A DNA stretch of 64,000 nt from Parcubacteria group bacterium (GCA_002687175.1 NYZP01000002.1:1171-65170); one strand, 5' to 3'. Positions 5,695-51,106 are shown, counted from the stretch's first letter. A program made the numbers and translations. Notes: generated from the sequence alone by a model not told the origin.

Positions 5695-6201
5695 GTGTAT
5701 GGTCTGTCAACTGAAGCTTCCTTAAATACTCCATCCAACGAAATTGGATCCGGAGTATTAAGTATAATTAATGTGCTCTTAGGATTCATTGGTATTTTCT
5801 GTTCTATAGGAATTATTATCGGAATTCCGCTTGGTATTATTTTGCTCAACAAAAAAGTGTTGGTATCAGGAACCTTTGACGATAGATCAGGCAATGGTAA
5901 AAATTCAACTGTCCCAGAGGAAATAAAAGGTTGGAATTGGGGCGCCGCTGGCTTACACTGGATTTAGGGAGTTTGGCATGGAGTTTGGATATCGCTGCTG
6001 GTTTTTATCCCGGTGGTTAACTTGGTGATGGTTATAGTTTTGGGGATAAAAGGAAATGAATGGGCCTGGAGAGCACAAAAATGGGAAAGTGTAGAAAAAT
6101 TTCAGACTTCTCAAAACAAATGGAAACCCTGGGGTATTGTATTTTTTGTCTTAATACTGCTGAGTATAATATCAAATATTCTGTTGCCAGATACTTCATA
6201 G
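5695..6201 (+). pseudogene. DUF2628-like small membrane protein interrupted by an in-frame TAG at 5965-5967.
   Basis: The two track ORFs 5695..5967 and 6013..6201 are in the same frame. Translation through the TAG is continuous: NWGAAGLHWI*GVWHGVWISLLVFIPVVNLVMVIVLGIKGNEWAWRAQKWESVEKF, which matches the DUF2628 NWGAF...GNEWYW pattern. Confidence 0.45.
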
Positions 6202-6242
6202 ATTCAATAAAAATTTAATTAAATAATAATTTATATATTTAG

Positions 6243-6461
6243 ATCATAAAAGAGACCCACGCCAGAAGTATTTTCAAAACTATCAGCTGGCGAGTTATTG
6301 CGACCCTAACTACTACCATACTGGTTTACCTTTTTACGGGCAGTTTTAAAATCGCTCTAGGCATTGGATTTTTTGAAGCCAGCCTAAAACTTTTATTTTA
6401 TTACTTACATGAACGCGCTTGGGACAAAATTAATTGGGGAACAGCTTTAACAAAAAAATAG
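6243..6461 (+). CDS. DUF2061 family membrane protein (about 72 aa) with no ATG start. Candidate starts are ATC at 6243 and ATA at 6246.
   Basis: Translation (I)KETHARSIFKTISWRVIATLTTTILVYLFTGSFKIALGIGFFEASLKLLFYYLHERAWDKINWG matches the DUF2061 consensus (METHxRSxxKAxSWR...). An in-frame TAG sits at 6240-6242 immediately upstream. Confidence 0.5.
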   Translation: MIKETHARSIFKTISWRVIATLTTTILVYLFTGSFKIALGIGFFEASLKLLFYYLHERAWDKINWGTALTKK

Positions 6462-6691: not shown

Positions 6692-8878
6692 TTAAGATGC
6701 AACTGACCTAGTATGACTACCTGCTAGGGGTTGCCTTTTTTGTAGTTCCTCCAACTGGTCAATGACCTGGGACACAAAACTTTCAGAGCCTATGGCGTGA
6801 ACTCTAATAGCCAAAGCACGATACTCTTTGAGGGCATTCTCAACGGAATGGTTGCTCAAAATGACATGAATAAACAAGGTGTTGGCTGAGGCACTCTTAA
6901 CAGCATCAGATACCTGGCGTTTCTTGTCAGACTCAATAAACGCTACTTTCTTGGCACCAAGGCTACGAATATCCTGAAGCAGTCTGGTCTTGTGTGGAGC
7001 CACCTTCCTGCCACCGATAATCACTACCTTAGAAAAGATAGACAACGGAGGTTGCTCAACAGGCTCAATCTCAGGCTCTGCTGCTGGCGCCGGTACACCC
7101 TGAATATCCAGAATTCTGATAATACCTGCTGAATCTTTAGCTCTGACTGAAACAATCAGAGGAGAGTCAGGAGCCAGCAAGGCCTTCAAGGAATCAGGTT
7201 TAGAAAACAGGGATTGAGCAATGTTTAAGCCCATCTGTTTGCAGACATTAGCGATCTCTTGAAGTCGCAGAAGGTCTCTCCGGGAAAAAGAGTTCCAAAA
7301 CTTTTCACTGTCACTGTCACTAAAGACTGGTAGTGTCTCGCGGATTTCAGCAATCAGTACCCCTCTGGTTGATACGTACTCCTCGTCCCCTTCAGGTCCT
7401 GTTGCTTGAGTAATCCGAGCACTTTCTGCTTGTTTACTTAAGAATCTGTTATATAGATCCTCAAGACCCTTAAGGGCTTGGCAACGTACTGAGAGTTTAC
7501 CGGCACTCATTGCCTTGGTATACATTCCCTTAACGGCCCGCTTGGCATCACCCTGAAGTCTTTGCCCCAAATAACTCCAATACTGCTCGGCTTCATCCTC
7601 TATCTCCTGAGCTATCCAAAGATCCTTTTCCTTCTTGCATAAAGGTCCCAGCAGTCCACGAACAGTCTTCTGACCACGGTCATAAAACGGCAGGGGCTGC
7701 CACAACAGTCTCCCAGGATAATTACGATAGAATACCCAGGTGGTTCTCCTGACTGATTTCTTTGTGGGATAAGCATTCATTTTACTTTCCAGCTCTTCCC
7801 TAACAATCCGCGACATGGACATAGGCAGTATCTGAAGACCAAGACCAAGCGCCAAAACGACAATTCCCCAAAATACCGGTTTACCCCAGTGGCTTAACCA
7901 GACTTCTTGAGCGACCGCATCAGCTATTCTTTGCTGTTCCGGCAAACGATGGGTGTTGAAGTAGTACGAACCGTAAGCCAAAGGCCAGCTGAGCGCAATG
8001 CTATTAGCTTTTTGCTGAATCGTCGTCATCATCAGCTGTCTGGTGCTACGGGCGACGGTTGGTGTGCCTGGCCTGGTTGGCCTCAACCGTTCTGGCATTA
8101 CCCCACTTTCAAGCTGTTTATTCACTTCGGGGGAGAGTGAACGAACACCGACTCCTCGTACATCTTTTTCAACTGTCCTTTGGGCCATAGAATATAACAC
8201 CAGGCACGGACCAACCATTGACCGTAGTTCTCGAACCTGGCTCCTGGAAAAAACAAAATTATAGGACTCGTACGGTTTAGACTCAAACATAAAACCCTGG
8301 TCATCGTTTGAGCTGTAATTATCAATGGTCTTCTGAAGATTAAGAGCAGCCTGCTCCGCCTCTTGTCGCGCCGGGACTGAATTCATCAGAGCTTCATATT
8401 GCCCAACCCGCTGCTCATGACTCTTGGGCATCTGGAAAAATGAGCCCATACTCAATATGGCCGGGCTAAAACGAATGGTTGTGACAATTCGTAACATTTC
8501 ACCTTCTTGCTCAACTTCCTCGTAGTAAAAGTTGATCAAGTCTCCGGTGTAGCTTCGATCCCAATCAATCAATCCTTCAGACTCAATATTGGCCACTGGT
8601 TGAAGGATTTGGCCCAGACTCATCCTTAAAGTTTCGGCAATATGCTTTTTGCCGGAAATCATAAGGGCGTCTGTCATCTTCCTAACTTCGTCAGCTTGGT
8701 GCATAATCTCGAAAGCTGACACCTGCTGGTTCGCCAAAATGTTGATACGCTTTAGTTCAATCTCTGCTTCGATTTGCTTATTACTGGTGAAACCCTCCTG
8801 TCTAAACGAAAAAGCGATGGCCACCGAGCATGCAAGCAACACAAAAAGCAATACTTGTCTCATCTCTTCTTCTCCCAA
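6692..8878 (-). CDS. Large hypothetical membrane protein (signal peptide/TM plus an internal TM) with a DUF2325-like C-terminal domain. The island is mid-GC.
   Basis: 728-aa ORF. The probable start is the second Met (MRQVLLFVLL..., about 8863), which has a GGAGAAG RBS. The C-terminus VVIIGGRKVAPHKTRLLQDIRSLGAKKVAFIESD...FIHVILSNHSVENALKE resembles DUF2325. GC content is much higher than the flanks. Confidence 0.6.
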   Translation of the reverse strand: MGEEEMRQVLLFVLLACSVAIAFSFRQEGFTSNKQIEAEIELKRINILANQQVSAFEIMHQADEVRKMTDALMISGKKHIAETLRMSLGQILQPVANIESEGLIDWDRSYTGDLINFYYEEVEQEGEMLRIVTTIRFSPAILSMGSFFQMPKSHEQRVGQYEALMNSVPARQEAEQAALNLQKTIDNYSSNDDQGFMFESKPYESYNFVFSRSQVRELRSMVGPCLVLYSMAQRTVEKDVRGVGVRSLSPEVNKQLESGVMPERLRPTRPGTPTVARSTRQLMMTTIQQKANSIALSWPLAYGSYYFNTHRLPEQQRIADAVAQEVWLSHWGKPVFWGIVVLALGLGLQILPMSMSRIVREELESKMNAYPTKKSVRRTTWVFYRNYPGRLLWQPLPFYDRGQKTVRGLLGPLCKKEKDLWIAQEIEDEAEQYWSYLGQRLQGDAKRAVKGMYTKAMSAGKLSVRCQALKGLEDLYNRFLSKQAESARITQATGPEGDEEYVSTRGVLIAEIRETLPVFSDSDSEKFWNSFSRRDLLRLQEIANVCKQMGLNIAQSLFSKPDSLKALLAPDSPLIVSVRAKDSAGIIRILDIQGVPAPAAEPEIEPVEQPPLSIFSKVVIIGGRKVAPHKTRLLQDIRSLGAKKVAFIESDKKRQVSDAVKSASANTLFIHVILSNHSVENALKEYRALAIRVHAIGSESFVSQVIDQLEELQKRQPLAGSHTRSVAS

Positions 8879-29818: not shown

Positions 29819-32188
29819 ATGTATTTGCACAAGATAGAAATCCAGGGATTTAAATCATTTGCCCAAAAAACTACTTTAGAATTTCCACGGCCTGGAGCAG
29901 GCTGTGCTTTAATTATAAACGGTGAAACAACCAACAAAGGCACTCAACTAAAAGACGGAACTTGTGGCATTGCCTGTGTCGTTGGCCCTAACGGTGCTGG
30001 TAAATCAAACATTGTTGATGCCATTCGCTGGGTTTTGGGTGAACAAAGTTTAAAAAGCCTCCGTGGTAAAAAAGCGGAGGATGTTATTTTTTCTGGTTCA
30101 GAGCAGAAGTCTCGTTTAGGTATGGCTCAGGTATCAATGTATATTAACAATGAAGATGGGGCGATGCCCGTTGATTATAAAGAAGTGACAATTTCTCGAA
30201 AGGTATTTCGTAATGGAGAAAGTGAATACCGAATTAACAAAAGTAAAGTCCGTTTGGCTGATGTGTTGTTGCTAGTAGCCAAATCAAACTTTGGCCAGAA
30301 AAGTTACAGTATTGTTTCTCAAGGGTCGATTGATCAAGTGATTATGGCTAACCCCCACGAACGTAAAGATTATTTCGATGAAGCTGTTGGAGTTAAACAG
30401 TTTCAGTTGCAACGTGATCAGTCTCTCAATAAATTAGAAAGTGCTTGGAATAATTTACGTCAGGTTGATGCCTTATTGACGGAAATCAAACCTCGGCTTA
30501 ATTCTTTAACTCGTCAGGTAAAACGTTTAGAAAAAAGAGAGAAGGTAGAGGCCGAGCTGAAAGATGTTCAACAAAAATATTATGGTTGGCAGTGGCAGAA
30601 ATTGAGCCAAGAGATTAAAAAATTAAAGCCCGATCTAGACGAAGGTGAGAAGAACTTGTCCGACCGAACTAAGGAACTCAAAGACTTACAAAAGCAGCTA
30701 CAGTCTTTAGAGAAAGAAGATTCTCGTAGTAAAGTATTTAATGATTTACAACAAAAATATCAAAAGGTTTTAGATCAAAGGAATAAGCTTAAAGAAGAGC
30801 AATTAATTTTACAAAACAAGATTGAGCTGGCTAAACAACGCTTAACCGAAAAAGCCGTTCCCATGGCATTACCGGAGATTGTCAGCAGCCTAAAAGATAT
30901 CGATAAGCTGGAACAAAAAATAATTAGTAGTTTAGATTCGAAAGATTTAGCTAAGCAATCTCAACTTAAAGAAGATGTTAAAGAGCTGGGTCGGTTAATT
31001 AAAGATATTCTGGATAAGTTAGAAAACCCAAAAGTTAAACAACAGGTTAAAGCTGACCTTGATAAAGATTTGGTAAATGATCTTAAAGAAGTAGAAAAAG
31101 ATTTTACAACGATTGAACATCAGTTGGATCAGGCCAGAAAGGCCGTTGATAATTTTAACCAGCAAGAAGAGCAGAAAAAGGGAAAGTTTTTTGATATCCA
31201 GCACAAAATTAACAGTAAGCAAAATCAGTACAATAAATTAGCCGGTGAAGTTTCAGAAATGCGGGTGGAGATGGCTAAGCTGGAAACTCATCAACAAGAT
31301 TTAAAGCGAGAGATTCGAGAAGAAATGAATAGTACCAGTTGGCTAGAGGGCAATAAAGCTGAAAGAGTGAATGAAGAAGAACAGCACTCAGAAATGATTA
31401 GACTAAAACGTCAGCTAGAGCTTATTGGAGGGGTTGATCCGGAAACAATAAAAGAACACAAAGAAACCAAGGAACGACATGATTTTTTGGATGAACAGGC
31501 CGAAGATCTGCGCAAGTCCATTAACTCACTGGAGAAAATTATTAACGAACTTGATGATAAAATTCAGGTTCAGTTTGATCACGCTTTTAAAAGTATTAAT
31601 AAAGAGTTCTCCAAGTTTTTCAAAATATTATTTGGCGGTGGTAAGGCTGAACTGATGTTGATTAAAGAAGAAAATAAACCAGAAGAGAAGTCTCAGCTAG
31701 TTAATGAGGGAGAAGAAGGGGTTGAAGGAGATCCTGAAACAAGTTCAGGATCAATTTTACAAACTTTAACTGAGGCTGAAGATAATTTAAGTCCTAAGAG
31801 ACTTTTAAAGAAAAAAACCGGCAAGGTTATTGCTGGCATTGATATTATTGCCACGCCTCCGGGCAAGAAGGTATCGTCAATCAGCATGCTTTCAGGTGGT
31901 GAACGGTCATTGTCTTCGATTGCTTTGATCTGTGCAGTGATTGCTAATAACCCGTCACCATTTGTTATTTTAGACGAAGTTGATGCCGCTTTAGACGAAG
32001 CCAACTCGCAGAGGTTTGCTAAGATATTAAATGAACTGGCTCATAAAACTCAATTCATTGTTATTACCCACAACCGGGCCACTATGCACCAGGCCGATAT
32101 TTTGTATGGGGTAACTATTGGCGATGATGGTATTTCTAAATTAATTGGTTTAAAACTTGAACAGGCCAAGCAGATTGTGAGGCAATAA
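29819..32188 (+). CDS. smc: Shortened SMC-like chromosome-partition ATPase.
   Basis: N-terminal Walker [12 protein letters not shown], long coiled-coil region, C-terminal signature [13 protein letters not shown] and Walker [11 protein letters not shown]. At 789 aa it is only about two-thirds of a typical SMC. Confidence 0.8.
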
Positions 32189-40949: not shown

Positions 40950-42431
<1,482 letters not shown>

Positions 42432-42526
42432 AGGGAGATATAAGGATGGAGAGCCGGAATTCCGCTCTTCATCACTAGTCGCCATTCTGAGCAATCAGAG
42501 TGAGGGAATTAGTGTAAATATGAATT

Positions 42527-42562
42527 GGTTTTCCGCCAGAGGCGGACCAGCCTCTGGCTGGT
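42527..42562. repeat. Double-hairpin repeat element, copy B (ccgcc-aga-ggcgg, then ccagcc-tct-ggctgg), followed by a terminator-like hairpin with a T7 run (42590-42615).
   Basis: The second stem carries compensatory changes relative to copy A (cccgcc/ggcggg versus ccagcc/ggctgg). Confidence 0.7.
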
Positions 42563-42763
42563 TGTCACATTTTGTTTGTTAAATAAAAGAACCGTCTTAA
42601 CGGCGGTTTTTTTGTTTGTTAGTATTGACAAAATTGAGATCCTGTGATAAACATAGATTGCCTTTTGTGAGGAAAGGAAAACATGGTGCGTTGCAGTACC
42701 TTTCAAGTAGATAAATCAGCTAGGCCACTTACGGCCACGCAACACCTCACAGGAGGAAGCACC

Positions 42764-43177
42764 ATGGGAAGCTTCGGCGGCTGGTTAACACCAGGAGGTG
42801 GATCATCAGGCCCTGACCCGCGAGAGCAGGTCGAGCGATCCATCAAAGAGCATGGTTGGGTTTTGGAAGCGGCTCGTGTAGCCTTTAATTCCCAAGACCC
42901 ACTCCATTGCTACTACGGTGAAGACTGCAACCCTGACGAATATCTTGGTTACGCTGAGGAATTTGTCAAAATGTTCGAACTGACAGATGTATATGTCGAT
43001 ACCATGGAAACGGTACGCGACAGACATCCAATAACTTCTCTGGACTTTGTCCGGGAAATTGTCAGACGAACATTTGGCCCTTGTCAGTTTATCAGGGGTT
43101 GGGTTTCTTCGGAAGACATTGAAAACATCGCTCAGACTTTGGTCAATGGCGGTGTTAAGATGTCAGCTGAAGGATAG
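42764..43177 (+). CDS. Hypothetical protein of 137 aa on a mid-GC island between the 16S gene and the tRNA cluster.
   Basis: Perfect AGGAGG RBS 7 nt before ATG 42764. The longer track ORF starts at 42683. TTGACA at 42626 upstream. No recognised domain. Confidence 0.5.
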   Translation: MGSFGGWLTPGGGSSGPDPREQVERSIKEHGWVLEAARVAFNSQDPLHCYYGEDCNPDEYLGYAEEFVKMFELTDVYVDTMETVRDRHPITSLDFVREIVRRTFGPCQFIRGWVSSEDIENIAQTLVNGGVKMSAEG

Positions 43178-43217
43178 GAGGATGCCTCCTCCTAACATGC
43201 AGTCGATGCCCAACCGC

Positions 43218-43265
43218 ATCTCACAACCGCTAGCGTATGTTTTTCGCCAGCGGTTATTTTTTAAA
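43218..43265 (+). terminator. Rho-independent terminator after the 137-aa gene.
   Basis: Stem aaccgctagcg...cgccagcggtt followed by a T6 run. Confidence 0.5.
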
Positions 43266-43319
43266 ATAATATTGACTAAACAGACTTTTATTGTTATATT
43301 AGTTTATGTTTAAAATTAA

Positions 43320-43396
43320 GGGCGATTAGCTCAGTTGGTTAGAGCGCGTCACTGATAATGACGAGGTCCGAGGTTCAAATCCTCGATCGCCCACCA
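43320..43396 (+). tRNA. tRNA-Ile (GAT), CCA encoded.
   Basis: Cloverleaf GGGCGAT...ATCGCCC with anticodon loop CTGATAA. Confidence 0.9.
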
Positions 43397-43452
43397 TTAT
43401 ATATTAATATGCCGAGTTAGCTCAGTGAGGTCCCAAACCTTCTGGTGAATCG

Positions 43453-43527
43453 GCCGAGTTAGCTCAGTGGTAGAGCGAAGGACTGAAAATCCTTGCGTCC
43501 CCAGTTCAATTCTGGGACTCGGCACCA
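43453..43527 (+). tRNA. tRNA-Phe (GAA), CCA encoded, embedded in a 17-bp inverted repeat.
   Basis: Cloverleaf GCCGAGT...ACTCGGC with anticodon loop CTGAAAA. Confidence 0.9.
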
Positions 43528-43624
43528 GAAGGTTTGGGATAAACTCCGGACTGAAATTATTGTATCTCAATTCAGTTCCGGGACTTGGTACAATATTTCT
43601 CTCCTAACGGAGTGAAAACATTGG

Positions 43625-43701
43625 CGGGGTGTGGCGCAGTTGGCTAGCGCGCGTCGTTTGGGACGATGAGGTCGTGGGTTCGAGTCCCACCACCCCGACC
43701 A
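43625..43701 (+). tRNA. tRNA-Pro (TGG), CCA encoded.
   Basis: Matches the E. coli tRNA-Pro architecture, with anticodon loop TTTGGGA. Confidence 0.9.
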
Positions 43702-43744
43702 TCACAACATAGCGTATTTATTATTGTTTGGACAGTATTAAAAT

Positions 43745-43772
43745 TGTCATCCCTGCGAAAGCAGGGATCCAG
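43745..43772. repeat. Left 28-bp terminal inverted repeat of the GIY-YIG cassette (tgtcatccctgcgaaagcagggatccag).
   Basis: Exact reverse complement of 44070-44097. Each arm is itself a hairpin. Confidence 0.8.
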
Positions 43773-43779
43773 AAACGCT

Positions 43780-44067
43780 ATGATGACCTATTACGTTTAT
43801 ATACTTGCCAGTAAAAGAAATGGAACGCTCTATGTTGGTGTTACTAATGACTTGGCAAGAAGGGCCTATGAGCATAGAGCAGGCTTAATTAAAGGTTTTA
43901 CAAAAAAATACGGGGTTAAGGTGCTAGTTTATTTTGAAGAGTTTGACGATATTGGTTTTGCAATTCAGAGGGAGAGAAATTTAAAAAAATGGAAACGTGA
44001 CTGGAAATTAAATCTAATTGAGAGTTCTAATCCGGACTGGGAAGATTTATACTTTGAATTAGATTAA
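43780..44067 (+). CDS. GIY-YIG nuclease family protein (UPF0213/YhbQ-like, about 95 aa).
   Basis: GIY-YIG motif YYVYILASKRNGTLYVGVTNDLARRAYEH. The start is the Met at 43780 or 43783; the upstream part of the track ORF overlaps tRNA-Pro. Confidence 0.8.
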   Translation: MMTYYVYILASKRNGTLYVGVTNDLARRAYEHRAGLIKGFTKKYGVKVLVYFEEFDDIGFAIQRERNLKKWKRDWKLNLIESSNPDWEDLYFELD

Positions 44068-44069
44068 TA

Positions 44070-44097
44070 CTGGATCCCTGCTTTCGCAGGGATGACA
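44070..44097. repeat. Right 28-bp terminal inverted repeat of the GIY-YIG cassette.
   Basis: ctggatccctgctttcgcagggatgaca, the reverse complement of the left arm. Confidence 0.8.
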
Positions 44098-44106
44098 GAA
44101 AAGTGT

Positions 44107-44181
44107 GCGGGTATAGTATAGTGGCTATTATGTCAGGTTTCCAACCTGAAGAGGCGGGTTCGATTCCCGCTACCCGCTCCA
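44107..44181 (+). tRNA. tRNA-Gly (TCC).
   Basis: Near-identical architecture to E. coli glyT, with anticodon loop TTTCCAA. Followed by a terminator at 44195-44230. Confidence 0.9.
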
Positions 44182-44280
44182 AGAGTAAATCGCCTTCAGG
44201 CCCGCTTAGTCGCGAGACTAGCGGTTTTTTGATATAATTCAATCAGCAAAAATTCTAAAAAAGAAAGTAGCAACTAAAGC

Positions 44281-45201
44281 ATGAATGATAAGATAATCTT
44301 CGTAATAGGTCATCCTAGGTCGGGCACAACTTTATTAAATAAGGTGTTGTTAGCCCATCCTAAAATTAACTTTATTACTTTTGAGTTTAACGATTTATCT
44401 TATTTTTACTTTAATCAACATTTATATGAAAAATATGGTAAAGAAAAATATTTAATGATGACTAAAGATTTTTTTAAACATCCTTGGATTCAACTATCTT
44501 TGATTCAACAACCAGTAGAAAGCATCAAGACAAGTAATATCAATACAAATAATTTTCAACAGTTCGTCCATAGTTTTTTAAATGAATTTAGACTTCCAAA
44601 AGATAACAATCTAATTGGCATAAAGATATCTGATAATATTACCAATAATGTTTCGATGATCGCTCAAATTTTTAAGGATGCTCACTGTGTTCATATTATT
44701 CGTGATCCACGGGATATTTTTCTTTCAACGAAAAAAAACTTTGGAACAGTCAGCCCTTTTTATGGAGGAAAATCTTGGGCGGAAAATGTCAGCCAGATTA
44801 TGTCACTTAAGAATGAGTTGAAGCATTATTATGAATTACGATACGAACAATTTGTGACTAATTCAAAAGAAGAGTTAGAAAAACTGTGCTCTTTTTTAGG
44901 GGTAGATTTTGATAATCAAATGTTAGAGTTTTATAAAAAAATAATTAATCCTTCTAAGTCTCATTCTCTCCTGACAAAAAAAATTGTTACTAATAATTTT
45001 AACAAATGGCAAACAAATCTTAGTGATAAAAAGTTGGAATTACTCTATGCTGGAGCCGGTGCCAAGATTTTTCAGCTTGGATATTCTGACAAAGAACATA
45101 ATAGCAGAATAAGTTTCTTGGAAAGATTAAAGGAATTTATTTTGGAGAAAAGCAGATTGTCAGTGCCGCTGGTTTTAGTCCGGCAGAGTTTGCCCAGGTA
45201 A
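44281..45201 (+). CDS. Sulfotransferase-family protein. The last 50 nt or so of the ORF run into the GC-rich pyrD remnant.
   Basis: 5'-PSB motif HPRSGTTLL and 3'-PB-like RDPRD. AT-rich until about 45150. Confidence 0.6.
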   Translation: MNDKIIFVIGHPRSGTTLLNKVLLAHPKINFITFEFNDLSYFYFNQHLYEKYGKEKYLMMTKDFFKHPWIQLSLIQQPVESIKTSNINTNNFQQFVHSFLNEFRLPKDNNLIGIKISDNITNNVSMIAQIFKDAHCVHIIRDPRDIFLSTKKNFGTVSPFYGGKSWAENVSQIMSLKNELKHYYELRYEQFVTNSKEELEKLCSFLGVDFDNQMLEFYKKIINPSKSHSLLTKKIVTNNFNKWQTNLSDKKLELLYAGAGAKIFQLGYSDKEHNSRISFLERLKEFILEKSRLSVPLVLVRQSLPR

Positions 45202-45779
45202 CGGGAGTAATTTTTAACGCCGGTGCCGACGTTGCTGAAGAGAACCTAGGCTGTCCCAACGTTTGGGATGGTGGTGCACAAAAAGGTATCGCCTCTTTTA
45301 GCCCCGTGGCGACTCACGAGATACTTGAAGCAGTCGAGAGAGAAGTTGGCGTTGATGCCAACATTTTGGTCAAGCTCTCGCCTTTTTCTAACCCGGCAGA
45401 CCTGAGCGAAGTTGCCTCAGTGCTTGGAGAGTCTAAGTTAGTCAAAGCGGTAGTTACCTGTAATACTTTTCCCAACGCTTTTGCCATTGACGGAGATGGC
45501 GATCCCTGGATTTCCCCTGGCGGTGGTTTGGCGGGAATGGCAGGACCGGCTCTTAAGCCAATTGGCATGGGTCAAGTTAAGCAGTTTCGGGCTCAGCTTC
45601 CAGAGCGTATTCAGATCGTTGGCGTTGGTGGAATTCGTTCAGGGCAGGATGTTCTTGATTATTTACGAGCCGGTGCGGACGCGGTGGCCATTGCCACCAG
45701 CTTAGTGGAGGAAGGTCCGGCGGTGTTCAGCAGAATACTTTCCGAGTATGTCGATTTGGTCGAATCGGGAGAAAATTAA
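45186..45779 (+). pseudogene. pyrD: Promoterless 3' fragment (about the C-terminal half) of dihydroorotate dehydrogenase (PyrD), mid-GC.
   Basis: Translation covers ...IFNAGADVAEENLGCPNVWDGG...GGLAGMAGPALKPIGMGQVKQFR...QIVGVGGIRSGQDVLDYLRAGADAVAIATSL. The N-terminal FMN-binding half is absent, and the fragment is out of frame with the upstream sulfotransferase ORF. Confidence 0.5.
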
Positions 45780-45831
45780 TCCGGAGGAGTTGACAGTAGT
45801 TACTGTCGTTGGCTTGATTGACTGAAAATGG

Positions 45832-46446
45832 TTGATCAAGTTTTTTTTGTCACTATTGACAAAAAAGGTTATATATGCTAAGGTGTTTAACTTTCTCAAA
45901 AGGGAATTTTTTAATACTTTATCTATGAAAACCATTAAATCACTGAGAAAAATTAGTAATCATAAACTTGAACTATTAGTGCTTTTTGCTCTGGTTTTTG
46001 AGTTTATTTTTCCTCGCTACAGTTTAGCGGTTGATCCAATTGAGCTGGATCAAAGCATTATGTTGCCCGAATTAGTCATCAAGTCTGTTATAGAGGAAAA
46101 TAGTGAGGTTTCTTTAATCGCTCCATCTAGAGAAGTTGAAATTTTAAATACTTATCACGTACCAATCACCGCTTATTCCTCAACTGTTGACCAAACTGAC
46201 AGCACTCCTTGTATTACCGCCAATGGTTTCGATTTGTGTGCGCACAATCAAGAAGATGTTATTGCTGCTAATTTTTTACCATTTGGTACTAAGGTCAGAA
46301 TTCCCGAATATTATGGTGATCGGATTTTTACTGTTCAGGACAGAATGAATGCTCGATATTACTACCGAGCTGATATCTGGATGAAGGTCAGAGCTGATGC
46401 TATCAAATGGGGCTTGATTTATACAACTATTGAAGTTGTTGACTAA
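45832..46446 (+). CDS. 3D-domain (RlpA/MltA-like double-psi beta-barrel) secreted protein. The likely start is at 45925.
   Basis: C-terminal 3D-domain pattern with conserved Asp residues (TVQDRMNARYYYRADIWM). Confidence 0.65.
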   Translation: MIKFFLSLLTKKVIYAKVFNFLKREFFNTLSMKTIKSLRKISNHKLELLVLFALVFEFIFPRYSLAVDPIELDQSIMLPELVIKSVIEENSEVSLIAPSREVEILNTYHVPITAYSSTVDQTDSTPCITANGFDLCAHNQEDVIAANFLPFGTKVRIPEYYGDRIFTVQDRMNARYYYRADIWMKVRADAIKWGLIYTTIEVVD

Positions 46447-46538
46447 ATTGAATAAAAAACATGGTGGCTTGTCGCCGAATCTTTTAGTAGAGGTTAGGTT
46501 GATTTAAAAGCCTTTTTTTGTTAGACTAATCTAGTCCT

Positions 46539-50684: not shown

Positions 50685-50960
50685 TGCTAACATTGAATAA
50701 CTTTAACAACTTTAAAATCTATGAACAGGAATAGTAGGTTTTGATCTGTAATAATAGAGAGCCGGGAATGGTGGAAGCCTGGCATTACCACAAAACTGAA
50801 ACGAGCCTGGGAGATGGTTTGGTGAACATTAATTAGCCAAACCCGGCAGCGTCCGTAATCAAGCGTTAACTATTATCGCTTTGTCATTCTGAACTTGATT
50901 CAGGATCTCATTGGACTGAGATAGTGAAAGCGAACAAAATTTACCGTTTACTTGACGGTT

Positions 50961-50990
50961 TTTTTGTTAATAAAGGTGGTACCGCGGACC
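50961..50990 (+). terminator. Rho-independent terminator closing a roughly 250-nt noncoding transcript downstream of clpP.
   Basis: Stem accgtttacttgacggt followed by a T7 run. Confidence 0.5.
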
Positions 50991-51106
50991 TCTTGATTTA
51001 TTTTGAGATAGAATCCCGTCCTTTAGACACAATATTTATTGTGTTTAGAGGGTGGGATTTTTTCGTGCCCATATTAATCGTTCTTTTAAATAAGGAGAAG
51101 AGCTTT

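Follow-up and report, generated by a model that had tools for sequence, protein, structure and literature searches.

We analysed a stretch of 64,000 nucleotides from a Parcubacteria group bacterium (GCA_002687175.1, NYZP01000002.1:1171-65170), hereafter called the window, and found that its positions 43745 to 44097 very probably hold the gene of a 94-residue Ssn endonuclease placed between two inverted copies of its cognate hairpin motif, with a role deduced from its homologues. The Ssn family was described by Chenal et al. (Nat Commun, March 2025; PMC11893778) as single-domain GIY-YIG proteins of about 94 amino acids (CDD cd10448). SsnA of Neisseria meningitidis and three homologues bind a hairpin repeat, named NTS in Neisseria and SRM (Ssn-related motif) in general, as single-stranded DNA (ssDNA) only, and they cleave a few nucleotides upstream of it, solely on the strand that bears it (PMC11893778). 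The ssn genes usually carry the motif on their flanks (PMC11893778); follow-up papers to this description were not found in a literature search. Judged by its sequence, the locus described here is a further example of this known Ssn/SRM system and not a new kind of element. The identity of its parts was established in the present analysis, and its activity is carried over from the four characterised homologues.

The cassette spans 353 bp on the plus strand (43745-44097), its limits being the points where homology to a paralogous cassette of the same genome begins and ends. The left SRM, TGTCATCCCTGCGAAAGCAGGGATCCAG, occupies 43745-43772 (+) and ends 7 nt before the first ATG of the ssn gene (43780-44067, +), while the right SRM, its exact reverse complement, occupies 44070-44097 (-), 2 nt after the stop codon and 9 nt before tRNA-Gly. 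A previous sequence-only reading of this DNA had described perfect 28-bp inverted repeats around a GIY-YIG gene lodged between tRNA-Pro (43625-43701) and tRNA-Gly (44107-44181), each arm being itself a hairpin, and all of this agrees with our results. As ssDNA, each arm folds into an 8-bp stem (ATCCCTGC/GCAGGGAT) closed by a GAAA loop (dG of -8.6 to -10 kcal/mol, z of -4.1 to -5.7), with T-GTCAT at its 5' side and CCAG at its 3' end; the resulting layout, TGTCAT-CCCTGC-GAAA-GCAGGG-ATCCAG, is that of an oriented SRM. Allowing up to 3 mismatches, the 64 kb contain only these two copies of the 28-nt arm (0 expected from 100 shuffles). Compared with the Neisseria NTS consensus CGTCATTCCCGCGMAVGCGGGAATCYRG, 23 of the 28 positions are equal, the differences being located at positions 1, 7, 10, 19 and 22. 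Positions 7/22 and 10/19 are paired stem partners that have changed jointly relative to the NTS, resulting in two compensated pairs. As in the NTS, a GTC precedes the palindrome of the arm and a C directly follows it, both being critical for cleavage and binding by SsnA (PMC11893778).

The open reading frame (ORF) between the arms comprises 95 codons from its first ATG, or 94 from a second ATG at 43783, plus the stop codon; the earlier count of 96 amino acids includes the stop or is off by one. Its product matches the Pfam GIY-YIG domain PF01541 (E = 1.6e-18, residues 4-78 of 95) and aligns by BLASTP with the 94-residue SsnA orthologue of Neisseria gonorrhoeae at 55% identity over 93 residues, without gaps (E = 3e-38); a tblastn search of N. 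gonorrhoeae gave E = 4e-27. The gonococcal ORF was taken as the SsnA orthologue by its length (94 aa), its Y6, Y17 and E64 residues and its NTS-rich context. Homology was accepted in the Ssn description at E < 1e-10 to Neisseria SsnA, and the value obtained here with the gonococcal orthologue lies below that threshold. Numbered from the ATG at 43783, the window protein has Tyr6, Tyr17 and Glu64 at the same positions as in N. meningitidis SsnA, where mutations of Y6, Y17 and E64 abolish cleavage (PMC11893778). Among 30 homologues, Y6, Y17, R27, H31 and N83 are invariant and E64 is nearly so. The AlphaFold (AF2) model shows one compact domain with a pLDDT of 95.4, and its top matches in the PDB by Foldseek were all GIY-YIG domains (UPF0213, Slx1 and the N-terminal domain of UvrC), no Ssn structure existing in the PDB for this comparison. 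Considered jointly with the cognate inverted SRMs, these features leave us highly confident that the gene encodes a predicted single-domain GIY-YIG endonuclease of the Ssn family.

Other assignments of the protein were also considered. In NCBIfam the sole match was TIGR01453, at 22.9 bits under a cutoff of 56.05, and no specific model was found; searches of PADLOC and PHROG with the window protein gave no match. A defence-system or phage protein was ruled out by the latter result and by the absence of any match in 50,697 phage genomes, and a GIY-YIG homing endonuclease by the score for TIGR01453, the total length of 94 aa and, again, the lack of phage matches. The protein is GIY-YIG only in both Pfam and Foldseek, which excludes an HUH/Y1 transposase. 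The proposal of a homing-type element, made in the sequence-only reading, was not supported, as Ssn enzymes are ssDNA-specific, site-specific nucleases, neither homing endonucleases nor transposases (PMC11893778).

The same reading had called the protein YhbQ/UPF0213-like, which holds loosely, in that UPF0213 members are the nearest solved folds, but not by sequence, where they reach only E = 2.9e-4 (BH0048) and 1.3e-3 (EF2693) at about 26 to 31% identity. One might accordingly take the locus for a housekeeping YhbQ/UPF0213-type gene with generic intrinsic terminators, and the very wide distribution of a 25-nt core of the arm, described below, would suit such a view together with the fold matches. 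However, SsnA at E = 3e-38 is far closer than UPF0213 at E = 3e-4, the arms lack a T tract and neither was called as an intrinsic terminator on either strand, and the position of the gene is not conserved among relatives, all of which make a housekeeping gene with terminators highly improbable. The sequence-only reading had itself named generic terminators and a conserved gene position as the outcome that would speak against a cassette; the arms turned out not to be terminators, and the gene position differs among relatives.

The Ssn/SRM assignment was extended to a set of 83 related loci at 48 to 71% identity, of which 80 came from metagenomes and 3 from viral contigs; 76 of the 83 had adequate flanks. 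Searching these 76 by regular expression revealed SRM-type motifs facing inward on both sides in 54, on one side in 16 and on none in 6. A strict structural detector applied to 73 loci found an inward pair in 34 and an outward pair in 4, against a background of 1% per flank. Overall, about half to 70% of related loci have the inward hairpin pair. In 97 clean arms we counted 34 distinct stem sequences, each a perfect stem of 6 to 9 bp right after (T/C)GTCA, and TCCA(G/T/C) follows the stem in 75 of the 97. The stems thus covary while the single-stranded flanks stay fixed, which fits an oriented hairpin recognised by a protein as ssDNA. Related cassettes measure 353 to 401 bp, and the same design was seen at the distant loci L011, L012 and L225. 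Two soil-metagenome cassettes (L157 and L158) differ from all others examined in that their inverted repeat runs at least 15 nt past the SRM on both sides (cgacgtcccccagat|CGTCAT...). Moreover, locus L224 (NZ_CP119140.1) is a 2.17-Mb N. gonorrhoeae replicon filed as a 'plasmid', almost unannotated and evidently the chromosome; ssnA is uncalled there, and the NTS copies closest to it point outward, in contrast to the inward arrangement of the canonical cassette.

Outside this genome the motif has a different distribution. The 25-nt core GTCATCCCTGC-N4-GCAGGGATCC was found in at least 120 stretches of a genome collection, from more than 15 phyla, with hosts including Alpha-, Beta-, Gamma- and Deltaproteobacteria, Planctomycetes, Bacteroidota, Actinomycetes, Omnitrophica and groups of the candidate phyla radiation (CPR). 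An ssn homologue was present in only 4 of the 120 listed 8-kb blocks with the core and absent from the other 116, so that outside this genome the core is mostly a dispersed, solitary repeat. In SRM-rich genomes, too, the motif is mostly dispersed (PMC11893778). In the genome studied here, class-1 SRMs, the class of the cassette arms, stand next to ssn genes only, with four copies in the 76 kb examined. The sequence-only reading had proposed to search for the 28-mer elsewhere, and this revealed two more identical arms at a second ssn in the same genome, and the core in the stretches just described.

The cassette lies in a probable tRNA transcription unit (43272-44236, +), downstream of a 16S rRNA gene (40951-42429). 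The unit runs from a promoter-like TTGACT-17-TATATT (43272-43300) through tRNA-Ile, tRNA-Phe, tRNA-Pro, the cassette and tRNA-Gly to a terminator-like site with a T tail (44208-44226), the sole such site in 43150-44350. An Rfam scan of 43000-44400 reported tRNAs only, and ssn is probably co-transcribed with them. This location raises the question of whether the arms act mainly at the level of RNA or transcription, as hairpins that stabilise or process the mRNA or as insulators in the tRNA operon, with recognition by the nuclease being secondary. The cassette indeed sits between the promoter-like site and the only terminator-like site, its hairpins adjoin the ORF within 2 to 8 nt at both ends in both cassettes of the genome, and the outer ATGACA of the right arm yields a promoter-like site into tRNA-Gly. 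Nevertheless, across phyla the stems covary but the non-palindromic GTCAT and CCAG do not change, pointing to oriented recognition by a protein; the inverted arms place the forward motif only at the 5' end of the mRNA, its 3' end carrying the complement; and SsnA of N. meningitidis does not bind RNA (PMC11893778). In addition, 116 of the 120 listed blocks have the motif far from ssn in other genomes, and the tRNA context is peculiar to this locus. ARAGORN, verified on the window, found no tRNA in the 83 related loci (300 kb), which indicates that the tRNA setting is incidental and not a family trait. We therefore regard a primarily RNA-level function as improbable.

It was also observed that the outer arm ends (ATGACA, the complement of TGTCAT) form the -35-like half of outward promoter-like sites on both sides (44092-44119 on the plus strand, 43750-43723 on the minus strand). 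The right-hand one, ATGACA-16-TAGTAT, points into tRNA-Gly and has 9 of 12 consensus matches; as a consensus match only, it recalls the outward promoters of insertion sequence (IS) ends.

Returning to the Ssn/SRM assignment, a mechanism can be proposed by analogy with the characterised enzymes. ssDNA would arise from incoming transforming DNA, from replication or repair intermediates or, possibly, on the non-template strand of the heavily transcribed rRNA/tRNA region. On a strand exposed in this manner, its one forward SRM would fold into the 8-bp hairpin, and Ssn would bind the stem together with the GTCAT and the 3' C and cut the motif strand a few nucleotides 5' of the SRM. The putative cleavage zones, transferred from N. 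meningitidis SsnA, would be 43739-43744 on the plus strand, left of 43745 and outside the cassette, and 44098-44103 on the minus strand, right of 44097 and within the 9 nt that separate the cassette from tRNA-Gly. The enzyme would leave duplex DNA, RNA and the complementary strands uncut. Because the arms are inverted, each strand could be cut at one site, at the outer cassette edge, and the arms may be kept invariant because they are the recognition sites of the enzyme. In Neisseria, DNA flanked by NTS is less well transformed (PMC11893778), and by analogy the role is likely to be the control, processing or restriction of ssDNA such as transforming DNA. The host genome encodes ComEC.

Several observations weigh against this interpretation. 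The published SRM search pattern, HGTCWYN(0-2)YYVSBRHN(0-5)WNVSBRGN(0-2)RNCYNB, had 0 exact matches in the window, and the arm needs one substitution to match it (at position 19, where an A pairs with a T in the stem); relaxed by one substitution, the pattern gave 7 window matches against 3.3 expected and is thus not specific by itself. Altering the stem sequence while keeping its structure abolishes the activity of N. meningitidis SsnA (PMC11893778), so that the specificity of the present enzyme for its own stem is only presumed to have co-evolved. The Neisseria protein used for comparison was the gonococcal orthologue and not N. meningitidis SsnA itself. Since SRMs occur only beside ssn in the 76 kb, a genome-wide role like that in Neisseria is not evident, and a role in the control of transformation extends to a CPR bacterium what is known from Neisseria. 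Finally, the sites flank only the enzyme's own gene, with no evident gain to the enzyme, which is the main reason for still granting the interpretation as a selfish element some, though low, probability.

The source is a marine metagenome-assembled genome (MAG), and the relatives of its NDK and IF-2 proteins place the organism among the Parcubacteria/Patescibacteria, near Buchananbacteria and Moranbacteria. The identical window protein was found on eight contigs, including the MAG GCA_002434675.1 and Tara Oceans scaffolds, in the same context throughout. In the source MAG, a second ssn gene (P0006, 77% amino acid identity) lies between ndk and a helix-turn-helix gene (L007, cassette at 5966-6319), flanked by the identical 28-mer in identical geometry. 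The two ORFs share 75% of their nucleotides; synonymous sites are saturated (pS 0.79) and pN is 0.125, indicating that both copies are old and both under purifying selection. By contrast with the ORFs, all 56 of 56 arm bases are identical across the two cassettes, with a probability of about 1e-7 under the ORF identity and of 2e-15 under that of third positions; therefore, either very strong constraint acts on the arms or they have been homogenised. Over the 40 nt outside the arms, the two cassettes match at 16/40 and 11/40 positions, which is the random level. Homology thus ends at the outer arm ends and the conserved unit is delimited exactly by the arms, in line with the nuclease ORF between inverted hairpin arms that the sequence-only reading had taken for a cassette.

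Both loci vary among relatives. At the ndk locus, three species with 81 to 85% identical NDK retain the upstream synteny (PfkB, AdoHcyase, ComEC, MBL, response regulator, NDK), and ssn and SRMs are absent from this locus in all three. Alignment to L133 and L134 revealed an insertion of about 485 nt in the source genome, right after the ndk stop codon, that contains the second cassette. It consists of 127 nt, the 354-bp cassette and about 30 nt, being therefore some 130 nt longer than the cassette, and is followed downstream by the orthologous ndk terminator. Within L007 5870-6400 the second cassette is seen between two terminator-like hairpins, GGCGCAGAAATGCG followed by T7 upstream and TAGCCTAAAATAGGCTG followed by T7 downstream; as the ndk terminator of the relatives has its orthologue in the downstream hairpin only, the insertion appears to have brought or acquired a new ndk terminator. 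At the tRNA locus, comparing the tRNA-Pro/tRNA-Gly interval among relatives, a check suggested in the sequence-only reading, did uncover presence/absence variation: L222 (IF-2 72% identical) is the one relative with the same tRNA-Ile/Phe/Pro/Gly cluster, and its 329-nt Pro-Gly spacer does not align and contains no ssn and no SRM. An empty junction (3' end of tRNA-Pro, N30-60, 5' end of tRNA-Gly) was found 0 times in metagenomes, a search that is uninformative as the nearest relatives have only about 72 to 75% IF-2 identity. From these sequence comparisons we conclude that the module is gained and lost as a block.

Such variation bears on whether the cassette is an autonomous minimal mobile element, in which Ssn would nick ssDNA just outside the arms and the cassette would then be copied or moved, as a GIY-YIG analogue of IS200/IS605 or of RAYT and its repetitive extragenic palindrome (REP). 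IS-like mobility of the SRM-ssn-SRM arrangement was raised by the authors of the Ssn description as a hypothesis only (PMC11893778). The IS-like layout and the sharp limits of homology at the outer arm ends are consistent with mobility, as are the two copies at unrelated loci of one small genome, the presence/absence differences that separate the ndk locus and the tRNA spacer from those of related species, and the patchy spread over many phyla, also on large plasmids or chromids. Furthermore, a gene-less inward pair of SRM-like hairpins in L007, described below, resembles a non-autonomous derivative, and gene conversion could account for arms that are still identical on copies of ancient divergence. 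On the other hand, no target-site duplication and no insertion-site consensus were found around 34 cassettes, and among 38 cassettes none was nearly identical to another in unrelated flanks, the three close pairs sitting in homologous flanks. Both copies are synonymously saturated, which excludes recent movement, and the insertion at ndk extends about 130 nt beyond the cassette, with indel ends that differ from the arm ends. Phage carriage was not found either (0 matches in 50,697 phage genomes, and only 3 to 4 in viral contigs), and the ssn matches in the plasmid collection were large chromids or misfiled chromosomes. To our knowledge, GIY-YIG enzymes, here a hydrolytic nuclease of 94 aa, have no strand-transfer activity anywhere in the superfamily. 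Overall, an autonomous mobile element appears unlikely, and it was most probably recombination, rather than a dedicated transposition reaction, that inserted the cassette in this lineage. Of the minimal mobile cassette proposed from the sequence alone, the discrete unit gained as a block is retained, but evidence of transposition (target-site duplication, target consensus or recent copies) was not obtained, leaving autonomous mobility, by transposition or homing, as a hypothesis.

A related and similarly doubtful possibility is that the unit propagates itself by a new type of mechanism, in which ssDNA cuts just outside the arms would trigger recombinational copying or gene conversion between sites with SRMs. 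Self-propagation of this kind would explain both the identical arms on saturated ORFs and the presence of the 25-nt core in more than 15 phyla. If true, the reduced CPR genome would represent a minimal state, with gene-flanking sites and a gene-less class-2 pair as a possible non-autonomous derivative; were mobility to be proven, bacterial mobile elements would gain a new class whose enzyme is an ssDNA nuclease of the GIY-YIG type.

The class-2 pair belongs to another group of SRM-like hairpins (TGTCATTCCGAACTTGTTTCGGAATCTC) that this genome contains, for which the core is TCCTGAA-CTTGT-TTCAGGA-TCTC and 0 copies are expected by chance. Its members lie in the window at 31728-31755 (-) and 50882-50909 (+) and in L007 at 7072-7099 (+) and 7107-7134 (-), and none of them matched the published SRM pattern. 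The L007 pair faces inward, 7 nt apart and with no gene between, and is either similar to a miniature inverted-repeat transposable element or a relic of a lost ssn. One of the window copies is inside a T-box leader and the other within apparent coding sequence, without TGTCAT. The T-box leader (50712-51026; 126.7 bits) spans 315 nt compared with 219 nt for the model; its excess length coincides with the class-2 hairpin at 50882-50909, suggesting insertion of the hairpin in a riboswitch-like leader.

The tRNA cluster around the cassette has further peculiarities. Upstream of tRNA-Phe (43453-43527), the first 17 nt of this gene are repeated exactly at 43411-43427; the gene is enclosed by a 17-bp leader-trailer helix (43431-43447, TCCCAAACCTTCTGGTG, with 43523-43539, CACCAGAAGGTTTGGGA) that overlaps the CCA end, and followed by a degenerate tRNA-Phe 3' half. 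All of this lies in 43411-43600, and the fold has a dG of -33.4 and a z of -6.2. The same tRNA-Phe design with a different, perfect helix of 21 bp was present in L222 (860-1100), showing that compensatory changes have preserved the helix. A processing stem is one possible explanation, and a tRNA-carrying unit nested in an older tRNA-Phe is another. L222 also has partial tRNA duplicates at 560-1800, with the tRNA-Ile 3' half again at 687-727, pieces of tRNA-Gly at 1466-1480, 1521-1545 and 1760-1779, and two occurrences of a GC-rich motif, TTCGGCGGGCAGGTA, at 674 and 1509. The appearance of the cluster is that of tRNA genes scarred in this lineage by insertion or recombination, more than once.

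In the window, the 16S rRNA gene is followed (region 40951-43319) not by a 23S gene but by a family-less ORF of 164 aa (42683-43177) with about 48% GC, compared with 36 to 40% in the background, and then by the tRNA cluster; no large-subunit rRNA was found within the 64 kb. Beyond the cassette, the interval from tRNA-Gly to tRNA-Cys (44182-46538) has a patchy composition, with a sulfotransferase gene of about 29 to 32% GC and a 157-aa dihydroorotate-dehydrogenase-like fragment of about 52% GC. The genes after tRNA-Gly are entirely different in L222, which makes this interval a variable island beside the cassette.

The additions of this locus to the 2025 description are modest. A gene that would be annotated as 'hypothetical GIY-YIG / excinuclease ABC subunit C' can be renamed, as a prediction, an Ssn-family ssDNA endonuclease with two cognate SRMs, and the family is extended to a CPR bacterium with a small genome, in which the motif is seemingly confined to the flanks of the gene. 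This confinement makes the enzyme and its site (TGTCATCCCTGCGAAAGCAGGGATCCAG) a simple natural pair for biochemical use. Old paralogues with 56 of 56 arm bases equal provide the type of evidence needed for separating constraint on a recognition site from concerted evolution by conversion, and the comparison of filled with empty loci shows a module gained as a block.

Among known systems, the Ssn/SRM of Neisseria is the closest. The window shares with it a protein of 94 aa with Y6, Y17 and E64, at 55% identity to the gonococcal orthologue, and an oriented motif with GTCAT, an 8-bp stem, a 4-nt loop and a C after the palindrome, located on both sides of the gene. In contrast with the NTS, the window stem is altered at two compensated pairs and is hence one base off the published SRM expression. 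The host here is a CPR/Parcubacteria MAG, with gene-flanking copies only in 76 kb, whereas pathogenic Neisseria have hundreds of dispersed NTS. The window arms face inward and adjoin the ORF, while the gonococcal gene lies amid 16 NTS in 3.3 kb, the nearest of them facing outward. Also unlike Neisseria, two diverged paralogues with identical arms are present, one of them inside a tRNA operon.

A likeness of Ssn/SRM to RAYT/REP was already drawn in the Ssn description (PMC11893778). The 'REPtrons' of REP-associated tyrosine transposases (RAYT), kin of the IS200/IS605 TnpA, likewise consist of a small nuclease gene between inverted hairpin repeats recognised as ssDNA; in both systems the repeat may occur as many solitary copies, and a domesticated mobile element is suspected. 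Nevertheless, the window protein is a hydrolytic nuclease of the GIY-YIG type, whereas RAYT and IS200/IS605 enzymes are of the HUH/Y1 type and form a covalent intermediate. In IS200/IS605, both end hairpins are on the same strand.

GIY-YIG homing endonucleases of the I-TevI type have the catalytic domain in common with the window protein and are similarly tied to insertion/absence polymorphism. The window protein differs from them in having no DNA-binding domain or linker in its 94 aa and in being outside any intron or phage, and the characterised Ssn relatives cut ssDNA at a hairpin only and not duplex homing sites. Lastly, the UPF0213/YhbQ proteins (PDB 1zg2 and 1ywl) are of the same size class and fold and are the best matches among solved structures, but with about 26 to 31% identity and E values of 3e-4 to 1e-3 they represent a different branch of the superfamily, and we know of no link between them and SRM hairpins, in contrast to the Ssn family, to which the window protein is by far the closer.

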